Shown here: positions 8,131-24,694 of the stretch, one piece after another | How the letters are laid out: each line of letters begins with the position of its first letter | Position numbering within the stretch: the first letter of the stretch is position 1 | Source: a virus | Lineage: Duplodnaviria; Heunggongvirae; Uroviricota; Caudoviricetes | IMG/VR virus record: IMGVR_UViG_2609460219_000010 | Span: 1 to 39,097 of that record | Length of the DNA: 39,097 bases | Strand: one strand, 5' to 3' | Notes under the pieces: model-generated | Seen by the model: the letters and a program-made list of their open reading frames with translations, nothing else | Database searches by the model: none | What the model was told of the DNA's origin: nothing | Position numbers and translations under genes: made by a program

Positions 8131-10139
8131 TAACCCACCCTCACCTGATTACTTCGCATGACCTGAGCATTTGCAGACTGTTGCCGACGTGCAACCTCAT
8201 TACCGACAGCGTGCGGATCTCCGCCACCGTAAATGTGGTAGGTATTTTGCTGGTTAACCTCTGTCACTTTGCCACTAATTCCTGCCACGGCAGCCTTATT
8301 AATCAGCTCCCGAGAATAGATATTTCTTCCATTTTCATGCTGGATAATGCTGCTCATCAATGCTGACATGGTTTGCGGATCGCTCATATTCAGGGCAGCC
8401 CTGGGATCCACTCCCAGTCGTTGCGATACAGCCCTGATATACGCAGTTGTGTTGTTATTATCAGACGCAGGTGCCCAGGTAGAGATAATTTTCTCCACAC
8501 TGTTTATTCCCCGTCCGGCGTACAGCATTAACTGACGAGCAAGAGCCCGTAATCCATCAAAAGCAGTTTCAAATCTGGCAAATCGCCCGCCCGGGCGTTC
8601 AAGAGAAGCCCCTGCCTGACCAGCAAAATTAAGGTTTCCCGGATTGTTATTCCGTTCTCCTCGTTTCGTAGCCTGTGCATATTGTTCCGGCTCATCATCC
8701 CCAAACCAGCCGCGTACCGTCCGGCCCACGCTGCGGGGATCGAATCCCCAGTGCTCTTTAATCCAGTCGGCAGTACTGTTAGCGCTGTCTGTAACCATCG
8801 GCATCGCTGACGGATTTTCGCTGNCCTGATTAAGTATCTGTTTGCCGATGCTGACGGCATCAGCCCAGCGGCCATCTTTGATAGCGTTGAGCAGGTCGGC
8901 GATCATGTTCAGTATTTTGCTGAATTCGCCCATCTGGTCGATGAAGTTGCTGAAATCCCACTTCAGGGACCATGATTTGGGGTCAATATTGAGCAGTTTC
9001 GCCAGCGCTTTCACCAGGTCGTTAACGGTCGTTTTAAGGTCACGAACCATCTTCAGCGCGGCATCAACCTCCGGTTTCCACTTGCCCCAGTCAATCAGGC
9101 TGTCGCCGCCTTCCTTCCAGGTCTGATAGTCCTCCCACAGGAGGGCAATCCCCGCCGCCAGCGCGGTAATGAGGCCAATCGGCGACATCCAGAACGTACT
9201 GTTCAGAATGCGCAACGCAATCGTCAGTGCGCCAAACAGCGAGATCAACTCCCGCGTTTGCTTATCCAGCGATTGCCACCAGGTGATGAGGCCTGATGTT
9301 CCTTCAATCAGTCTGAAGAACAGCCGCCCGATAATATCCCCGAGCGCCAGAATGCCTTTTATGGCTTTCGTCAGGGTCTGCTCGATACGCGGGAAGTTGT
9401 CCAGAATATGGCGGCGCAGGGTGTCCAGCGAACCCGCAAGCCCCCCCGCAAGATTAGAGCCGATTTTGTCACGGGCCATGCCTGCCATCGCGCTAAACTC
9501 ACGCAGGGAGGTCATAAATTTGTTGGAGCTTCTGGCCGCCTCGTCAGCATTGAAGCCGATAGCTTTCGCCATTGCGCTGTACTGCCCGGAGAAACCACCC
9601 ACACCCCGGCGCATAGCCATCANGGTATTTTCGTCAATGCCCAGCATCTGCGCATACTGGTTAGCCCGGTAATACGGCATGCCGCTGAGCTTCTGGCCTA
9701 CACCTGTAAAAATAGCGGCCATGTCACGCATGTTACCGCTGGCATCCCGTGTCTGTACCCCCAGGCGATTCAGAAATCCCTCTGCACCGGGATTGTTACG
9801 AATAAACCGGGAGAGGCTTTCCAGAGAAGATCGCGCAGCGTCCACGCTGCCGCCAACCTGCGAAACCGCATAGCCAATAGACTGAATTCCCTGGACTGTC
9901 GCGCCGGTGCGCTGTGACGCCCAGTAAAGATTATCCAGACCAGAGGCGATCTTAGCCGTGAAGGCCACCACGGACAGCGCAGCTCCTTCAACAGCCAGCC
10001 CCATTTTGATGACATTTGCAGTTGTACCGGCGAGGACAGAACCGAACTTTTTCGCTCCTGCATCATCCACACTGAAGCCAAGCGAGACGAGGAAATCTTT
10101 AATAGTTTCAGCGTTCATTATCCTCTCTCCATTTCTCAA
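8130..10139 (-). CDS. tail tape measure protein
   Basis: 669 aa, largest tail ORF, follows chaperone/frameshift pair downstream of sheath and tube; alternative start at 10118. Confidence 0.65.
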   Translation of the reverse strand: MRNGERIMNAETIKDFLVSLGFSVDDAGAKKFGSVLAGTTANVIKMGLAVEGAALSVVAFTAKIASGLDNLYWASQRTGATVQGIQSIGYAVSQVGGSVDAARSSLESLSRFIRNNPGAEGFLNRLGVQTRDASGNMRDMAAIFTGVGQKLSGMPYYRANQYAQMLGIDENTXMAMRRGVGGFSGQYSAMAKAIGFNADEAARSSNKFMTSLREFSAMAGMARDKIGSNLAGGLAGSLDTLRRHILDNFPRIEQTLTKAIKGILALGDIIGRLFFRLIEGTSGLITWWQSLDKQTRELISLFGALTIALRILNSTFWMSPIGLITALAAGIALLWEDYQTWKEGGDSLIDWGKWKPEVDAALKMVRDLKTTVNDLVKALAKLLNIDPKSWSLKWDFSNFIDQMGEFSKILNMIADLLNAIKDGRWADAVSIGKQILNQXSENPSAMPMVTDSANSTADWIKEHWGFDPRSVGRTVRGWFGDDEPEQYAQATKRGERNNNPGNLNFAGQAGASLERPGGRFARFETAFDGLRALARQLMLYAGRGINSVEKIISTWAPASDNNNTTAYIRAVSQRLGVDPRAALNMSDPQTMSALMSSIIQHENGRNIYSRELINKAAVAGISGKVTEVNQQNTYHIYGGGDPHAVGNEVARRQQSANAQVMRSNQVRVG

Positions 10140-17150: not shown

Positions 17151-17924
17151 TCAGGCGGGGTAAGAATGGGAGGTGGGAAAAACAATTTCTTTATAACAGC
17201 GACAATTCGGGAACTCGCCAGCGTGACCTGTCATGCAGTCAAGCGTTGGAGGTTTGCCCCATTCGACAAATTTACCTTCCATTTCCCGATGAGAATGCCT
17301 GACATCACCATCTTCGGCTGTACGCCAGATATAACCATTCGAACCAATTGCCAGCGCACGCGCCTGATCCAGCGCGCCGGTTGCACGTCCAAGTTCAGTA
17401 CGGGCAATCAGGTCAGCTCTGGACTTTGCTATATCACCCGATGCAGCTATTTCTTTAGCAAAATGTTCCGCTCTCCCACCGGTCACAACAGCTTCAATCG
17501 CCCGATTCTGGATGTCGTACACCCTGTCAGCCGCCTCGAGGGGGAGCGATTTGATGTACTTAATCTGCTCGGCAACGATGGATTTCATCACCTGGCCTAC
17601 CGGGGCGCGGTCAACCATGTTGCGCAGCTCTGCACTGATGTTCCGGCTGTGCTGACGCCACTGCTTTTCATTCTGGCGCGCAATGTCGGCGGTAAAGTTC
17701 TCAGCAACCTTCGTCGCCCANGGGGTGATGATTTCGCTGTAGCGCTCCAGCGCATCCATGATTTCGGTGACGCTATCGTTTGAACCATCGTAGCGCCCAT
17801 TTACGATATCCCCGACCGCCCGCGCTATCTGCCGTAGGCTCGTTCGATATCGGATCTCCGCCTGGCGACTCTGGCGGGTTGTCGCCAAGTTCGCCGATGC
17901 CTGGCGGCGCTTCGTCTTCGGCAT
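17151..17924 (-). CDS. head morphogenesis protein (minor head protein)
   Basis: 257 aa ORF immediately downstream of portal; N-terminus overlaps portal ORF so true start probably internal. Confidence 0.5.
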   Translation of the reverse strand: MPKTKRRQASANLATTRQSRQAEIRYRTSLRQIARAVGDIVNGRYDGSNDSVTEIMDALERYSEIITXWATKVAENFTADIARQNEKQWRQHSRNISAELRNMVDRAPVGQVMKSIVAEQIKYIKSLPLEAADRVYDIQNRAIEAVVTGGRAEHFAKEIAASGDIAKSRADLIARTELGRATGALDQARALAIGSNGYIWRTAEDGDVRHSHREMEGKFVEWGKPPTLDCMTGHAGEFPNCRCYKEIVFPTSHSYPA

Positions 17925-19242
17925 TCTCTATGTCCTCGTCGGTAATGGATGCCCCGATGCCGGTGACGTCAGAGTTTTCGCGCAGGTCGGTCATTGCCGC
18001 CTTACGCGTCATCAATCCGTCGCCCAGCGCGGTGCTGATCGCGTTGGTGGTGTTTACGGCCACCGTTGAGCGGTCAACGTCAGACATTTGCCATAGCGGG
18101 TTAAACTCAAACGTGAAATCGTCCGGCAGTGGCTTACCGAGTTCCGAGCGGTGCATAATGTCCAGTATCCGGCGCATCGGCAGCCGTAAGCGGCGCTCCT
18201 GCAATGAGCTCACCCGGTCGTAATAGTTGGCAAGATCTGCATCACCGGTTGAAAATCCTTTCGGGGACTGTCCGAACAACCGCACCAGTGGAATACCAAC
18301 AGCGCCACTAATCTGTTCTGCAAACTGTGATAGGATGTCATCCAGACCACTGAAGCTGTACTGATGCGTTTCAAACTTATCCCGCGAGTCCATGAGCGTC
18401 ATGCCTTCATTGCTCTGGAACTGTCGAATCAGGTCGATATTCTTCAGCAACGCTTCATACGCAGGACCACCAAGTGCGATAAGCTCGCGTAGCTTCTCCA
18501 CGCTGTAGGTACGCAAATGCGCTTTGTAGACCAGCTGCGCCGCGCCGACAGTGGCGCTGTCGAACGCAGTAAGACGATCCCAGATACGCTCCACAACGGA
18601 CATGCCCCATTCGTTCTCGGTCATTTTCTGCTGGAAAGGTAGCGTGACGCCGTCGAATCGAATCAGGCGACTGTGATGGATACGCCAGGAAGGGATACCT
18701 GTCGCGGTGGTCACCACATCGTAAAACTCAGGTTTACCCAGGTCCGGCCCCATATCTTTAATGCGGCGGGTCAGTACCGGGTCAATCATCCAGCGGTCGA
18801 GCGGGAGAATCCCCTTAAACTTGCCCTTACCGATGGTTTCGGGTCGCAGCGGGGTCATTGGTGCCTGCCCCTCAATCATGATGAAACCCACCGCGCCGCC
18901 GTAGAGGCGCGACCATTTCAGCACGTCATTCAGCGCATCCCAGATTTGCAACTCATCCAGTTGTGATTCGAGAATGCCACGATCTTTTGCATCAATTTCC
19001 GAAGTGATGCGAATGCCTTTGCGGGTCATATCATCCGGGATAGCATCGACTGCTTCGCCGATGATCCAGGATGAACGATAGGACCATTCCACCAGCATGC
19101 GGTTACGACTGGTGAAATTAGCCCGGTAGGTGGATGCTGAGTGCTGGTTAGGTGTCTGCATCCCTACGCGGGCGACAAAGTTCTCATAGCCATCAGCGGT
19201 GGCCTGTGCCGTTCGCTGAGAGGCTTGCTTGTTTCGTGCCAT
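17773..19242 (-). CDS. portal protein
   Basis: 489 aa ORF directly downstream of terminase large subunit. Confidence 0.6.
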   Translation of the reverse strand: MARNKQASQRTAQATADGYENFVARVGMQTPNQHSASTYRANFTSRNRMLVEWSYRSSWIIGEAVDAIPDDMTRKGIRITSEIDAKDRGILESQLDELQIWDALNDVLKWSRLYGGAVGFIMIEGQAPMTPLRPETIGKGKFKGILPLDRWMIDPVLTRRIKDMGPDLGKPEFYDVVTTATGIPSWRIHHSRLIRFDGVTLPFQQKMTENEWGMSVVERIWDRLTAFDSATVGAAQLVYKAHLRTYSVEKLRELIALGGPAYEALLKNIDLIRQFQSNEGMTLMDSRDKFETHQYSFSGLDDILSQFAEQISGAVGIPLVRLFGQSPKGFSTGDADLANYYDRVSSLQERRLRLPMRRILDIMHRSELGKPLPDDFTFEFNPLWQMSDVDRSTVAVNTTNAISTALGDGLMTRKAAMTDLRENSDVTGIGASITDEDIENAEDEAPPGIGELGDNPPESPGGDPISNEPTADSAGGRGYRKWALRWFKR

Positions 19243-20864
19243 CAGGCCTGTCTCCCTAGCAGCTCCCAGATGTTCAGGGCTGAATTCATTGGGGCATAGT
19301 TGATCATCACCGAGTCGGCAAGGTTTGGCGACCGGGTTCCATCAGGCTGTTTATCAATAACGATTTTTCCCACACTATTAATGGAATAGGTCGGCTGCGA
19401 AAGCTCGATGATGAGTTTATCTTTGAGTGCCATGCTACTGCTGATTGAGATGATTTCGTCCGGGTTGTAAGCCATACCTTCAACCACGGCGCGCCAGGTA
19501 TTCTGAAAAAGTTTACGTAACCGCCACCAGCTCTGGGCTTTGGCGTTAGCGAAGAAGTCCTTGTTAAGACGTGCGGCTTGCCCGTTGTCCCCGCGAACAG
19601 CTTCATCATCCGGATCAAATACCGCGCCACTACCTCGAAACGGTGTGGCGAGTATTGACGGTCGGCGCGCAGCGTTACGCAGTTCGTTGATAGCGCGTGC
19701 ATCGCCGCGAACGCCAGCGCCCAGCCCGTCCTCGTCAAAGCGAAACTCTTCGAGGTTGTCCTGTTCGCAAAAGCCGAAAACCTTCTCGACGGACTGATAA
19801 ATGTCGCTGCCCACACCGGACCATTCCCGCACATTCTCCAGGAGGAAGCCATGACGGGTGGAAAAGGCATTTTTGTCCCTGCCTTCGTCGGCGACATCCA
19901 TCGCGCCAAGTCGTTTGCCTGTTGGCTGGATCCCCAGTTTGATATGCGCATCAACGGCAGCCTGTACCCATTCGGATGGAATCAGAACGCCTTCCGCTGA
20001 TGCGCTGTAGTTCAGATCAAGTTCCTGTGCCACCACCACCGGATTATCGATTTTCTCGCATTCCCTGCGATACCACTCTTCATCCTTGCGAGGATCATCC
20101 CGCCAGTGGAATGTGAATACCGGTATCTTCCCGCCATGACGCTTCTGAGCGAACGGGTTCGCCATGCCATTAACTGAACTCAGGTCAATACGGCAACGCG
20201 TCGTTTGTGACAACGCCGCATCAATCAGCAGAGGACGCTGAAGGAATGCAGCCTCATCAACCAGATAAAGCGTGGTACGGTCACCACGACCAATATTATC
20301 GCCAGCCTCGCCTTTGATAACGGCACCAGTTTCAGGAAACTCAACACGCATATATGGCGCGTGCTTCTTCTCGCTCCACGAACCGCGAAACTCTACAGGT
20401 AGTGTTTCCACGAACTTGCGCGCCTTCCAGAACAATGCTTTCGGGTCACCGGTGCTGTCGACGTATTCCTCTTTACGGGAGCCGAAACCGATAACCATTT
20501 CTTTGTTGAAGAGACAAAGCGAGCAGGCCAGTCCGATCGCGGTCCAACTGAGCCCCATTTCACGGGATTTTTCGGTAATACCATTCTCCCGATTGCCCCA
20601 GCGTTCCATAATCCAGTGGATCCACTCCTCCTGCTTAGGGAAGAGTAAAAACGGAATGGTCACCGGCAGGCCATAATCAATATTACGCGGGTCCGTTGTC
20701 ATGCCCCAGTCGATGATGAACTGAGCCGGATTGGTTCGGTAAAACTGTTTTAGTGCAGGCAATATTTCAGGATTCTGGCGAATGCGCTGTAAGCGTTCCA
20801 TCCGCCATTCAAAAACCATCTGGTAATCAGGATGTTTAAAATCGAAGGGGAATGGTAACGGCAT
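19242..20864 (-). CDS. terminase large subunit
   Basis: 540 aa; follows small subunit; size and order canonical. Confidence 0.7.
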
Positions 20865-20866
20865 AC

Positions 20867-21418
20867 TTAGNCCATCATTTTTCTATACGCCTCTGCAGCC
20901 TGCTCCGGCGTTAAGTTGGTAATTTCTGTTCTGACTGGTCCTCCATCAGCGCCAGTCACTTCATTTTTGACGTTGTCTTTAAACGCCTGAACAGAAACAT
21001 GCTTACCAAGAAGTTCGAGGTTTTTAACCTTATCAGGCCATTTGATTTTCTTCAGGAGTGCGGCGCTATCTGCGGATGCCATCTCCACGACATCCATTCC
21101 TGATAACGTTGTGCGCCATACCTTAGGCCAGTCTTTAATGGGTTTTAGCTCACCGTTTTGCAGGAGAATGTCAAGCACATCCATCTGGTCGATTTCAATA
21201 AGGCGATTAAGTACATATTCTGCATTAATACCAACAAGATCATTGCGTTGCGCTTTCAGTTCGGCGATTCTTAACTTGATGTCAGGTTTTGACAGGTTTT
21301 CGGATGCGGTACGGTTAGCTGTCTTTGCGCTGTACCCCGCCCGAATAGCCGCTTGCGTGGCGTTTAAATCGATGAGGTACTCGCGACAGAACATTTCTTG
21401 CTTGTCGGTGAGTGCCAT
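20867..21418 (-). CDS. terminase small subunit
   Basis: 183 aa; N-terminus [30 protein letters not shown] resembles small-terminase DNA-binding N-termini; first gene of packaging module. Confidence 0.7.
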
Positions 21419-21438
21419 ATAGTACCCTAGGAGATCAA

Positions 21439-22017
21439 ATGGATAATTTGTCTGAGGAATTAAAGAAGCCCCACAATGGTAGGCTTAGAGCTTACATTGC
21501 TGGATTATTTGATGCAGACAGAAACAAGAGGTGGGTTGACTGTTCCCATGCAATTACGGCCCACAATCAATGGTCGACAATAACACTTCAACATCTAGGT
21601 GCACTAGATTCTCGCCTAGTTAATGATGATGCTGAACTCATCAAGACTGGATATCTAAAAAACCCAATGCACGACTTAAGTGATCATATCACTTCTTCCT
21701 ATCTCTGGGTTTTAGGAATGTATGAACTAGTAAGAACATTAGATCAATTTGCAAAAAATGATGGATCTCCATTGAATCATGTGCGAAATGAGATACAGAT
21801 CTATAAACGTAAGATCAATCGTTTAAGAATTCCATTAGCCAAAATGGAAGCCGCAAGTAGTAACTCTGATGACTCACCAATTGCATATCCAGGATTGAAT
21901 CAAGCTTTAGGCCTTGCATGGCAATTGAATGAGCATGACTGGATCTCTCGGCGTGAATTATCTGATGATGCTCTCACATTATTCGAGCACATAAAACATT
22001 CAATGACTAATACTTAA
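21439..22017 (+). CDS. hypothetical protein, AT-rich moron
   Basis: Opposite strand to all flanking late genes; strongly AT-rich; GGAG RBS before ATG at 21439 (ORF track start 21412); followed by hairpin terminator. Confidence 0.5.
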   Translation: MDNLSEELKKPHNGRLRAYIAGLFDADRNKRWVDCSHAITAHNQWSTITLQHLGALDSRLVNDDAELIKTGYLKNPMHDLSDHITSSYLWVLGMYELVRTLDQFAKNDGSPLNHVRNEIQIYKRKINRLRIPLAKMEAASSNSDDSPIAYPGLNQALGLAWQLNEHDWISRRELSDDALTLFEHIKHSMTNT

Positions 22018-22152
22018 TTAATTCTTCTTTATCTCAGAGAATACCAGGCGGCGTTTCAGTATTGCATATCTTGATTACTGTTTTACTAGACGCCGTCCGA
22101 TGGCTTCTTTATCCGGTTTTTACATGATTATGTTCCTAATGCTATAGCCATT

Positions 22153-22182
22153 AAAAAAGCTACTCGTAGGTAGCTTTGTCTT
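22153..22182. terminator. bidirectional intrinsic terminator between convergent genes
   Basis: AGCTAC-TCGTAG-GTAGCT hairpin (22158-22175) flanked by A6 upstream and T-rich downstream. Confidence 0.4.
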
Positions 22183-22228
22183 AATCTTACTCATATTTAA
22201 GGTGAAATAATAAAACTAAAACGAAATG

Positions 22229-22435
22229 CTATTTACCAATCGTTTCCTGAATAGCATCAGTCAACCGCGGAAGGTATTTTATTGCCTCCTCCAAATCATA
22301 AGACACGTTTTTCGCATCGGTAGGGGCAGATACGGCGGCCTTGATAATTTCAAGAGCTGCTTTGGTAGCCACTAAACGCTGGTGCTCAGAATCAGATACT
22401 CGGTTATCGCCAGATTTAAAATAATTGTCCATCAT
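22229..22435 (-). CDS. hypothetical small protein
   Basis: 68 aa ORF, AT-rich, between KilA-N gene and terminator. Confidence 0.3.
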   Translation of the reverse strand: MMDNYFKSGDNRVSDSEHQRLVATKAALEIIKAAVSAPTDAKNVSYDLEEAIKYLPRLTDAIQETIGK

Positions 22436-22541: not shown

Positions 22542-23072
22542 TCACACCATTCCGGGCAAATACATTTGCACTTCATTTGCCGCTCTCTCACGTGCAACAT
22601 GAAGCAATCTTTTTCGCCCACCAACGCCCCACTTAGCCATTTGGCTTGCGCACTGGCTTATCGCTTTGGTTTCAGTATTGATGATGTGATCGATTCTATT
22701 CAGACGGGACATTGCGCCAACACCGAGACGGACAACCGTTTTGAAAACTTCATAAACTTCGATTTCAAATTCCGGCTTAATCCATGCTGCATATCTGATT
22801 GCCAGAAGTTCAACACCCCACACACCTGGTTCTGCACCACCTTTGATTATTTTAAGTGGCTGAATTTGTTCCAAAGTGCTTTTTTGCACTTTGGCCTCCA
22901 GTGCTTTTATAAAGCGTTTTATCTGCGCGCTACGCAAAAACTGGCTTGGGCGCTGTTGCTCTGTAGCCTCTCCATTTGCAACTGCTGCTGCATGGAGATC
23001 GTTTAAGTTGTAGCGTCCATCCTCATCAACACGAACGGACACACCATTGACAATAACTGTTGGGTACTTCAT
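22542..23072 (-). CDS. KilA-N domain protein
   Basis: N-terminal segment VNGVSVRVDEDGRYNLNDLHAAA matches the KilA-N/APSES-type DG-Y-N--DL signature; located after lysis cassette. Confidence 0.55.
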   Translation of the reverse strand: MKYPTVIVNGVSVRVDEDGRYNLNDLHAAAVANGEATEQQRPSQFLRSAQIKRFIKALEAKVQKSTLEQIQPLKIIKGGAEPGVWGVELLAIRYAAWIKPEFEIEVYEVFKTVVRLGVGAMSRLNRIDHIINTETKAISQCASQMAKWGVGGRKRLLHVARERAANEVQMYLPGMV

Positions 23073-23274: not shown

Positions 23275-23724
23275 TTATTTCAGGCACTGAGTCCTGATGT
23301 ACTCCTGCAGGTAGTTAACCTGCGCGGTTATCCTGTCTATTCCACTTCGGAGACGGTAATAATTGAGTTCAGCATCTGCTGTAAGTCTTGGGCTTTCTCC
23401 ATCGCCCATGCTGCTGGCTCCGGTCGTTGACTTTGCACAGGTGGCGGAGACTTGCAGGCGCTTACGACCAGCAGAAACATCAGCACGGAGACTTTCGATA
23501 GTCGCGTTAGCATCAGCAAGTTCCTTTGTATATCTTGCGTCGAGTTCTGCTACATCACGTTGACGCTTCTGCATATCAGCGATGATGGATGTGGCTTTAT
23601 TGCGCTGCTCTTTGTAGGTCATGGCGTTATCACGGTAATGATTAACAGCCCATGACAGGCAGACGATGATGCAGATAACCAGAGCGGAGATAATCGCGGT
23701 TACTCTACTCATTGTTGCCCCCAC
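23275..23724 (-). CDS. Rz: i-spanin Rz
   Basis: 149 aa, N-terminal TM segment ([16 protein letters not shown]) and coiled-coil-like body; follows endolysin; contains embedded lipoprotein ORF. Confidence 0.75.
23337..23519 (-). CDS. Rz1: o-spanin Rz1 (embedded in Rz, +1 frame)
   Basis: Embedded ORF with lipobox-like LVVSAC followed by Pro-rich segment ([13 protein letters not shown]); exact start uncertain. Confidence 0.65.
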
Positions 23725-23758
23725 AAACAGACTTCACACTCAATCTCACGGCGAGTCA

Positions 23759-24205
23759 TCAGCCTTTCCATTGCTTACCGCCAGCGTATGTCCAGCGCCG
23801 TAGCTGATCACATGCGCCTTTGATATCGCCCTGGTTGATTTTGCGAAGAAGCGTCGATGTTCTGAAATTTCCAGCACCAACGTTGTAAACGAACGAGTAA
23901 AGAGCGCCGCGCGTTGTTTCCGGTATATCGACTTTGATGTACGGGTTAATTTGTCTGGCGACAGTGGCAAGGTCTTTATTCAGGAGGGCTTTGCATTCTG
24001 CTTCGGTATACGTTTTACCGAGCATAATGTCTTTTCCGGTATGCCCGTAACATACAGTCCATACACCAACGATATCTTTATATGGTATGTAGCTGACGCC
24101 TTCCAGACCATCGTTACCACTTGGGCCAGTGATTAACACAGATGCTATAGCAATAGCCCCGCCACCAATAGCCGCAGCAACGGCTTTTCGTAATGATGGA
24201 GGCAT
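23759..24205 (-). CDS. R: SAR endolysin (lysozyme, phage 21 R-like)
   Basis: 148 aa; N-terminal Gly/Ala-rich SAR-like segment [18 protein letters not shown]; matches my recollection of phage 21 R; start overlaps holin stop. Confidence 0.85.
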
Positions 24206-24420
24206 TATTCACCTCTCGCAGCCTTTCTTCTGTCTTCTCTGATTTTGAAGTACAGATTTGTCAGATAGGTGAGAAAGCCCAACACAAGGCTTCCAAGCAC
24301 CCCAATCGCAGCCCACTGTGATGGACTGACCTGATCCAACCACTGCAAAAACCAGTATCCCGCACTACCAGCGGATGTTCCGTAGGCAATGCCAGTTGAG
24401 ATTTTGTCCATTGATTTCAT
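24205..24420 (-). CDS. S: pinholin (phage 21 S-like)
   Basis: 71 aa, two TM segments, dual-start MKSMDK; matches my recollection of S21. Confidence 0.85.
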
Positions 24421-24538: not shown

Positions 24539-24614
24539 TGGTGCTGGTTAACGGACTTGAACCGCTACCCATTCGCTTACAAGGCGACCGCTCTACCATT
24601 GGAGCTAAACCAGC
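24539..24614 (-). tRNA. tRNA-like gene, manual fold gives anticodon UGU (Thr)
   Basis: Minus-strand 76 nt: perfect 7-bp acceptor stem GCTGGTT/AACCAGC, D-arm GCTC/GAGC, T-arm with TTCAAGT loop, 3' CCA encoded; anticodon loop CTTGTAA. Confidence 0.55.
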
Positions 24615-24619
24615 ATATT

Positions 24620-24694
24620 TGGCGGGACAGCGTGGACTCGAACCACGATAAGAAGGTTAACAGCCTTCCGTAATGACCTTTATACGACTGACCC
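24620..24694 (-). tRNA. tRNA-like gene, manual fold gives anticodon GUU (Asn)
   Basis: Minus-strand 75 nt: T-arm CGTGG-TTCGAGT-CCACG, anticodon arm GAAGG-CTGTTAA-CCTTC, CCA encoded; acceptor stem has one T-T mismatch. Confidence 0.5.

Follow-up and report, generated by a model that had tools for sequence, protein, structure and literature searches.

ORF192, a probable stand-alone accessory gene antisense to the late genes between the lysis cassette and terminase of a lambdoid Escherichia coli prophage

Introduction

Why should a single gene of a temperate phage run against the direction of the late genes on either side of it, and what might its product do there? The question is raised by a prophage sequence of 39,097 nucleotides (IMG/VR record IMGVR_UViG_2609460219_000010, positions 1 to 39,097, hereafter the window), which belongs to a lambdoid, P22-like prophage of Escherichia coli. 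In it, a plus-strand open reading frame (ORF) of 192 amino acids, here called ORF192, is wedged between the lysis cassette and the gene for the small terminase subunit, terS. A preliminary description of this locus, made from the sequence, had singled out the frame as antisense cargo. On the best reading of the evidence presented below, ORF192 is a stand-alone accessory gene, or "moron", of the prophage. The elements that define the junction are:

20867-21418, minus strand: terS, encoding TerS, the left flank of the slot (Pfam Terminase_2, E 2.6e-40)
21419-22089, no strand assigned: low-GC cargo cassette (GC 0.38), beginning with the first base past the terS start codon
21429-21433, plus strand: Shine-Dalgarno sequence AGGAG, 5 nucleotides before the ATG of ORF192 and also kept in Enterobacter loci with ORF192
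21439-22017, plus strand: ORF192, 192 amino acids, with its stop codon at 22015-22017, as read from the sequence and its translation

Coding status and conservation of ORF192

Translation confirmed the plus-strand frame of about 192 amino acids that the preliminary description had reported, together with its good ribosome-binding site and its divergent start some 20 bp from that of terS. The terS ATG, on the minus strand, ends at 21418, leaving a gap of exactly 20 bp to the ATG of ORF192. A GTG-extended version of the frame would begin at 21412; the ATG start is supported because the N-terminus that it yields, MDNLSEELKKPHNG, is conserved across genera. The marked AT-richness noted earlier is equally clear, with a GC content of 0.387 in ORF192 (0.31 at third codon positions) against 0.464 in terS, 0.526 in the gene for the large terminase subunit, TerL, and 0.496 over the window, and a low GC content relative to the surroundings is also seen in Enterobacter and Klebsiella. 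By computation, the encoded protein has a mass of 22.0 kDa and an isoelectric point of 6.3, and is hydrophilic and devoid of transmembrane segments; its maximal Kyte-Doolittle hydropathy over 19 residues is 0.67, and a lipobox is absent.

A word-indexed search returned 95 homologs of ORF192. Among them, the copies from E. coli, E. albertii, Enterobacter and Klebsiella are 81-99% identical to it, that from Pantoea 74%, and those from Serratia, Marinomonas, Aeromonas, Vibrio and Acinetobacter 41-50%. An exhaustive profile search extended the family to 886 clusters at 50% identity, 174 of them with E < 1e-30; the clusters are nearly all single-domain proteins of 160-230 amino acids. When one genome per species was scanned, 53 loci were found, spanning Cyanobacteria, several proteobacterial classes, Verrucomicrobia, Nitrospirota, Chloroflexi, Acidobacteria, Bacteroidetes, Saccharibacteria and two Archaea. 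Residues W90, E96, R99 and W161 are invariant in 132 diverse members, and R28, W32, G54, D57, S87, Y95, R128, R130, P132, K135, D145 and R171 are among those conserved in at least 90% of them. The conserved residues cluster in the motifs SYLWVLGxYE..RT, RLRIPLAK, TDSPIAYP and RRELSD. One member of 278 amino acids (alignment A5, probably P0204) has an added PilZ domain, of the c-di-GMP-binding kind, at E 9e-6, the only domain fusion seen in the family.

A chance or decaying frame without function would fit the want of a functional annotation anywhere in the family and of a convincing promoter. Against such a frame stand the ratios of nonsynonymous to synonymous substitution rates (dN/dS), 0.135 relative to the Enterobacter copy and 0.234 relative to the Klebsiella copy, as well as at least 20 near-invariant positions across phyla, a confident AlphaFold2 model and the good ribosome-binding site. 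The reading frame is conserved among relatives and, by these comparisons, is kept under purifying selection as that of a real gene; no homology to a phage late protein was found. We regard a functionless ORF as extremely improbable.

The slot beside terS

The boundaries of the cassette suggest how ORF192 came to its place. In the junction alignment (A2), identity extends through the terS start codon and is followed by complete divergence. The right edge lies at about 22090, where homology to the prophage of T28R resumes (megablast match from query position 679, which is window position 22090; alignment A4). The cassette so delimited has only 20 bp upstream of its gene, and the terminase and lysis genes that flank it are common among E. 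coli genomes. We compared the slot across nine E. coli prophages, the window included, whose TerS and TerL are the same, and found the following occupants:

Window: ORF192, 192 amino acids, plus strand
SM107: hypothetical protein, 143 amino acids, plus strand
T28R: hypothetical protein, 182 amino acids, plus strand
SCU-171: YodC/DUF2158 and DUF6953 on the plus strand, S1 peptidase on the minus strand
ERP001: hypothetical protein, 78 amino acids, plus strand
WAT: hypothetical protein, 90 amino acids, plus strand
LWY24: hypothetical protein, 72 amino acids, plus strand
Eco_23-2667: no plus-strand gene; DUF6979 on the minus strand
Strain 2824: empty

In seven of the nine, the window among them, a plus-strand gene begins 20-27 bp from the terS ATG. 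The survey of presence and absence at this junction, which the preliminary description had proposed, thus revealed seven differing antisense genes or none beside one and the same TerS. These varied occupants, with the low GC content and the break in homology at the terS ATG, bear out its view of ORF192 as cargo. ORF192 was acquired horizontally into a polymorphic slot; that it is a genuine cargo gene in a hotspot is very probable. With its sharp edge at the terS start codon, the cassette offers a simple handle for collecting cargo genes across genomes. Remote homology of ORF192 to the slot occupants of T28R and SM107 was looked for and none was found. The plus-strand slot genes of the nine prophages measure 72-192 amino acids; the junctions compared are window position 21419 and loci L001-L004 and L090-L093.

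Morons are reported to have been defined by Juhala, Hendrix and coworkers in 2000 for lambdoid phages of the HK97/HK022 type; in the classical case, promoter and terminator both arrive with the gene. ORF192 resembles one in being an extra gene between neighbours that adjoin in a relative (the empty site of strain 2824), in its deviant base composition and in an orientation independent of the surrounding operon. It may differ in its control elements, its cassette having only those 20 bp of upstream sequence and no clear terminator.

Occurrence in other prophages and mobile elements

The arrangement recurs beyond E. coli. Enterobacter prophages hold a homolog of 86% identity 20 bp from terS in the same antisense orientation, at loci whose TerL (Terminase_6C or Terminase_3), capsid and lysis genes differ from those of the window. 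In a Pantoea prophage (74%), the homolog lies 21 bp from terS, again antisense, and in Klebsiella prophages (81%) it lies antisense between the lysis cassette and the terminase region amid other cargo, including Beta_protein, a P4 cII-like gene and, in one locus, an Acb2/Tad1-hairpin gene. Two further IMG/VR prophages (50% and 47% identity) have a homolog between lysozyme and TerS/TerL, also antisense. Judged by these loci, the family re-enters the terS slot, in one and the same orientation, in several prophage lineages.

The lysis-terminase region of the Enterobacter and Klebsiella prophages mixes candidate counter-defence genes with accessory genes: an AcrIF11-like ADP-ribosyltransferase at 8928-9413 of locus L008 (Enterobacter-type), the Acb2/Tad1-hairpin protein at 7114-7407 of L011, and Beta_protein with the P4 cII-like gene at 5516-7145 of L009.

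The first two of these genes, found in the hotspot of relatives, raise the alternative that ORF192 is itself a counter-defence (anti-immune) protein used against host defence, for which a small, stand-alone protein would be suited. Such a protein would be poorly expressed in infection, since both early and late phage transcription run opposite to the gene. The family is, moreover, widespread in chromosomes without prophage context, including those of Archaea and of bacteria of the candidate phyla radiation (Saccharibacteria), and is almost absent from sequenced phage genomes. A counter-defence role is accordingly improbable in our estimation.

Other copies lie outside the slot. In an Aeromonas prophage, the homolog is part of an accessory island with catalase, superoxide dismutase, ankyrin, TIR or HNH, and KAP NTPase genes, and in an Acinetobacter prophage it adjoins the integrase. 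A filamentous (inovirus) prophage of Vibrio has a 46% homolog as its last gene (L089 7001-8545), after Zot and a secretin and ahead of an ADP-ribosyltransferase toxin gene. The homolog of a Serratia island is accompanied by HicAB and a DUF927 primase, and that of Marinomonas stands beside a NOV_C protein. The family as a whole is patchily distributed and often found on mobile elements.

A conserved partner gene was sought by clustering the neighbours over 58 loci and rejected, none being shared beyond close relatives. Within two genes of the homolog in 47 species-representative loci, we found three integrases, two PIN genes, two Gp49/HigB genes and a Zot, as well as Avs2, a type IIG restriction-modification gene, a DRT reverse transcriptase, a GajB-like helicase, PDC-S06 and capP; the same loci also hold many housekeeping genes. 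The association of the family with mobile elements is real, and that with defence genes is weak.

Genomic setting

The genes that frame the slot in the window, beyond terS, are:

17773-19242, minus strand: portal gene
19242-20864, minus strand: TerL gene
22542-23072, minus strand: KilA-N domain gene, between the cargo slot and the lysis cassette (Pfam KilA-N, E 7e-18)
23275-23724, minus strand: Rz, in the lysis cassette that forms the right flank (23275-24420)
23759-24205, minus strand: lysozyme, lysis cassette
24205-24420, minus strand: P21-type holin, lysis cassette

The flanks thus agree with the preliminary description. TerS, TerL and portal make up the left side of the slot; holin, lysozyme, Rz and KilA-N make up the right. 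The position of the KilA-N gene matches that of rha in the phi80 gene map. All other plus-strand ORFs of at least 90 amino acids between position 1 and about 29.8 kb are nested inside longer minus-strand ORFs, so ORF192 is the only credible antisense gene of the block and the sole plus-strand gene between Q/holin and the structural genes. Its uniqueness therefore stands as first described; the minus-strand block, put earlier at about 20 kb, measures about 29 kb.

The 3' side of ORF192

Downstream of ORF192, the sequence is made up of three elements:

22018-22126, plus strand: 3' tail of 109 bp, common to the Enterobacter and Klebsiella copies
22153-22182, no strand assigned: A/T-flanked hairpin with arms at 22156-22163 and 22170-22177, an A-run before it and a T-run after it
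22229-22435, minus strand: convergent ORF of 68 amino acids (phrog_5901), in late-gene direction

The tail contains a stem (GGCGGCG at 22047-22053, CGCCGTC at 22091-22097), broken remnants of a small minus-strand ORF (MxKPDxEAI...) and a 20-nucleotide element at 22100-22119 that also adjoins the unrelated cargo gene of T28R. In Pantoea and the more divergent copies, the tail shows no conservation. A conserved RNA structure or small RNA in the tail was rejected, as covariation analysis gave no support for a structure and Rfam returned only sub-threshold noise; the small RNA svsR was dropped as a match because it lies at cI.

ORF192 converges on the 68-amino-acid ORF across the hairpin, as the preliminary description had it. 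The hairpin that it proposed as a bidirectional terminator does exist, and such a role is plausible, but the structure is weak (free energies of -10.2 and -11.4 kcal/mol; z-scores of -1.6 and -1.4 relative to shuffled sequences) and was not called by a terminator scan. A weak bidirectional terminator is therefore possible. The hairpin lies in a segment common to T28R, EC931 and SW4848, and a megablast search found the module of 68-amino-acid ORF and hairpin in four of 5,426 complete E. coli genomes. In T28R, this module stands beside a different cargo gene. By these comparisons, the hairpin belongs to the 68-amino-acid module, separate from ORF192. The 68-amino-acid family is also far commoner than ORF192, being present on over 1,000 contigs from Salmonella and hundreds from E. 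coli, and the Enterobacter copies of ORF192 are followed by a 72-amino-acid ORF unrelated to it.

Comparison with known systems

An antisense gene at this junction has a precedent in phage lambda, where bor, a lysogenic-conversion moron, lies between Rz and cos/Nu1, runs against late transcription and is active in the prophage state. Its product, a small lipoprotein of the outer membrane, has a signal peptide. ORF192 shares the junction, past the lysis genes and ahead of the packaging genes, as well as the antisense orientation. A Bor-type lipoprotein was nevertheless rejected as its identity, for the protein is hydrophilic, without a hydrophobic segment or lipobox, and has no Pfam match, Bor included.

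The likeness of slot and orientation to bor would also suit a cytoplasmic factor of lysogenic conversion or host physiology that is unrelated to defence and acts in stress tolerance, regulation or signalling. Many of the distant homologs stand singly amid housekeeping genes, a STAS-domain gene precedes the verrucomicrobial copies, and the PilZ-bearing member and the Aeromonas copy beside catalase, superoxide dismutase and ankyrin cargo point in the same direction. The STAS and PilZ links are, however, restricted to one clade and one protein, respectively; the distribution is patchy and linked to mobile elements rather than conserved by lineage, and Pfam detects no DNA-binding, signalling or enzymatic domain. 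We hold a conversion factor of this kind to be unlikely, if not by a great deal.

A further precedent in layout is TaiEcA/AtiEcA of phi80, in which a system for tail assembly inhibition is paired with its counter-defence (He et al. 2024, PMC11364771). There, taiEcA (orf63, 204 amino acids) occupies the antisense strand between rha and the packaging region, and atiEcA (orf64) adjoins it in late direction (PMC11364771). Lysogens produce TaiEcA, which stops incoming lambdoid phages from assembling tails and whose level falls upon expression of Q; the arrangement has been termed a noncontiguous operon, and most Tai homologs lie upstream of the packaging module (PMC11364771). Like Tai, ORF192 is a single protein of about 200 amino acids, encoded between lysis or rha-type genes and the packaging module, antisense to a Q-dependent late operon, with a small late-direction ORF beside it, and both are cargo of prophages and mobile elements in several hotspots. 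In the window, however, the small ORF converges on the 3' end of ORF192, whereas in phi80 it diverges from the 5' end of the antisense gene. TaiEcA (L022 4366-4980, minus strand) also holds the sequence R-N-D-L-A-H, an Rx4H motif of HEPN type, which ORF192 is without. With TaiEcA (phi80 orf63) and its 57 homologs as reference, homology of ORF192 to Tai was rejected: BLASTP gave E 0.015 over 18 residues, and hhalign with the A1 profile gave a probability of 0.4%.

The phi80 layout would fit a further alternative, in which ORF192 is a solitary toxin or addiction gene, or an abortive-infection sensor-effector, with the small late ORF as antidote in the manner of Tai/Ati or Tha/Ith. A small late-direction ORF does adjoin ORF192 in the window (68 amino acids), in Enterobacter (72) and in locus L082 (70). 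These small neighbours show no relationship to each other or to AtiEcA, and the Klebsiella, Aeromonas, Acinetobacter and chromosomal copies are without such a neighbour. The 68-amino-acid ORF accompanies other cargo in T28R and occurs far more widely than ORF192. For this pairing and abundance, the absence of co-inheritance and the lack of similarity to AtiEcA, it was rejected as a dedicated partner or antidote. A toxin with its antidote is distinctly improbable.

Noncontiguous-operon regulation is likewise described for Tha/Ith of the Staphylococcus aureus phage 80alpha (Rostol et al. 2024, PMC11087260), where the lysogenic and lytic expression states exclude each other (PMC11087260). Tha/Ith shares with ORF192 an antisense gene nested in a long phage operon. 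The two differ in that the defence gene of 80alpha sits in the cI operon and the antisense gene is its inhibitor; there is no homology to ORF192.

The HEPN motif was also looked for in its Rx4-6H form and is absent; across the 132 members there is no invariant or near-invariant histidine and no HEPN match in Pfam. In fold comparison, de novo designed bundles, hemerythrin and FAT domains score as well as or better than HEPN. The arrangement of ORF192 is of a known kind, and the protein itself, as far as sequence comparison tells, falls outside the Tai, Bor and HEPN families.

Family searches and predicted fold

The preliminary description had found no recognisable motif in ORF192, and the profile and structure searches that it recommended led to no known family. 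The protein gave no match in Pfam, PHROGs v4 or NCBIfam, and Pfam gave no consistent match over the 132 members. A sequence-profile search of the PDB returned a terpene synthase as its sole match, which was judged spurious. The literature, searched by accession and by sequence motif, yielded no match to ORF192.

AlphaFold2, supplied with an alignment of 40 sequences, modelled ORF192 with a predicted local distance difference test score of 89.6 and a predicted TM-score of 0.84. The model has helices at residues 2-20, 26-39, 44-70, 80-105 and 113-127, followed by a highly conserved loop (128-150), three short strands (151-170) and a helix (171-190). The predicted fold is thus a helical bundle with a conserved loop, a small β-sheet and a C-terminal helix. 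Foldseek against the PDB and viral models found nothing below E 0.5, with generic helical bundles only.

Expression and proposed function

The cassette has so little sequence upstream of the gene that a promoter within terS is reasonable, the 5' coding region of terS being the only location possible; in this we concur with the preliminary description. A -10-like TATAGT at 21418-21423 has no usable -35 element. Transcription in lysogens is suggested by architecture and precedent, not by sequence, and we lean slightly towards expression of ORF192 in that state.

We speculate that ORF192 is transcribed during prophage dormancy, from a promoter in the terS 5' coding region that is either weak or regulated, and that the product acts alone in the cytoplasm and benefits the lysogen, most likely through interference with superinfecting phages. 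Once the prophage is induced, Q-modified late transcription would run antisense through the gene and lower its expression, a "noncontiguous operon" logic that would limit self-harm. Residues R28, D57, D64, E96, R99, R128, R130, K135, D145 and R171 may form a binding or catalytic site, the ligand of which could be a phage protein, a nucleotide or a nucleic acid. This explanation as a whole, its mechanism included, is one that we put forward tentatively, at somewhat less than even confidence. An anti-phage function of ORF192 is possible but doubtful. We also consider it possible, though rather unlikely, that ORF192 founds a new family of single-protein immunity against phages or mobile elements, of about 900 clusters at 50% identity in Bacteria and some Archaea and with a fold arrangement that has no solved relative, which would be spread by tailed prophages, inoviruses and integrative islands and switched off by late antisense transcription in the lytic cycle of its carrier.

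A number of observations weigh against an anti-phage gene expressed in lysogens. A scan of the plus strand from 20800 to 21440 for sigma-70 promoters found none with at least 9 of 12 matches. A relaxed search found TTGACA at 21289-21294, inside terS, followed by a 15-nucleotide spacer and TACGGT, and thus a perfect -35 with a poor -10 element. PADLOC-DB v2.0.0 profiles matched ORF192 to no family at E values up to 1, and with PADLOC no known defence protein was recognised among the alternative slot occupants, where one protease-domain similarity was all that appeared. The DefensePredictor supplementary files are without the ORF192 sequence, and the fold, as modelled, appears to offer no mechanistic clue. 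The link to defence genes is weak because many distant homologs sit among housekeeping genes, as do those of several metagenomic genomes. Finally, the gene is scarce: megablast found no copy in the 5,426 complete E. coli genomes, a DNA search of 50,697 phage records gave 0 matches, a protein search of phage records gave two doubtful Acinetobacter records for the family, and IMG/VR held 10 family loci among 2.9 million contigs. From this near absence in sequenced phages and complete E. coli genomes, the family is therefore rare cargo.

The TTGACA candidate (21289-21315, plus strand) is the only promoter-like sequence upstream of the slot, and all prophages with this TerS would have it in common.

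Should ORF192 prove active in lysogens, an uncharacterised and widely dispersed family would join the accessory and immune repertoire of temperate phages, and the terS-proximal slot of the P22/lambda-like prophage group would be a productive place for further such genes. Phage-protective activity would raise its importance because the family is large and unannotated; without such activity, ORF192 would be an ordinary hypothetical moron.

Other features of the window

The window contains 17 single N bases scattered over its length (for example at 1109, 6537, 20871 and 28827); that at 20871 falls in the last codons of terS, and none lies inside 21412-22435. Between the Q antiterminator gene and the holin gene there is a pair of tRNA genes:

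24539-24694, minus strand: tRNA-Thr (TGT) and tRNA-Asn (GTT)

The same tRNA-Thr/tRNA-Asn pair occurs between Q and holin in related E. coli prophages.

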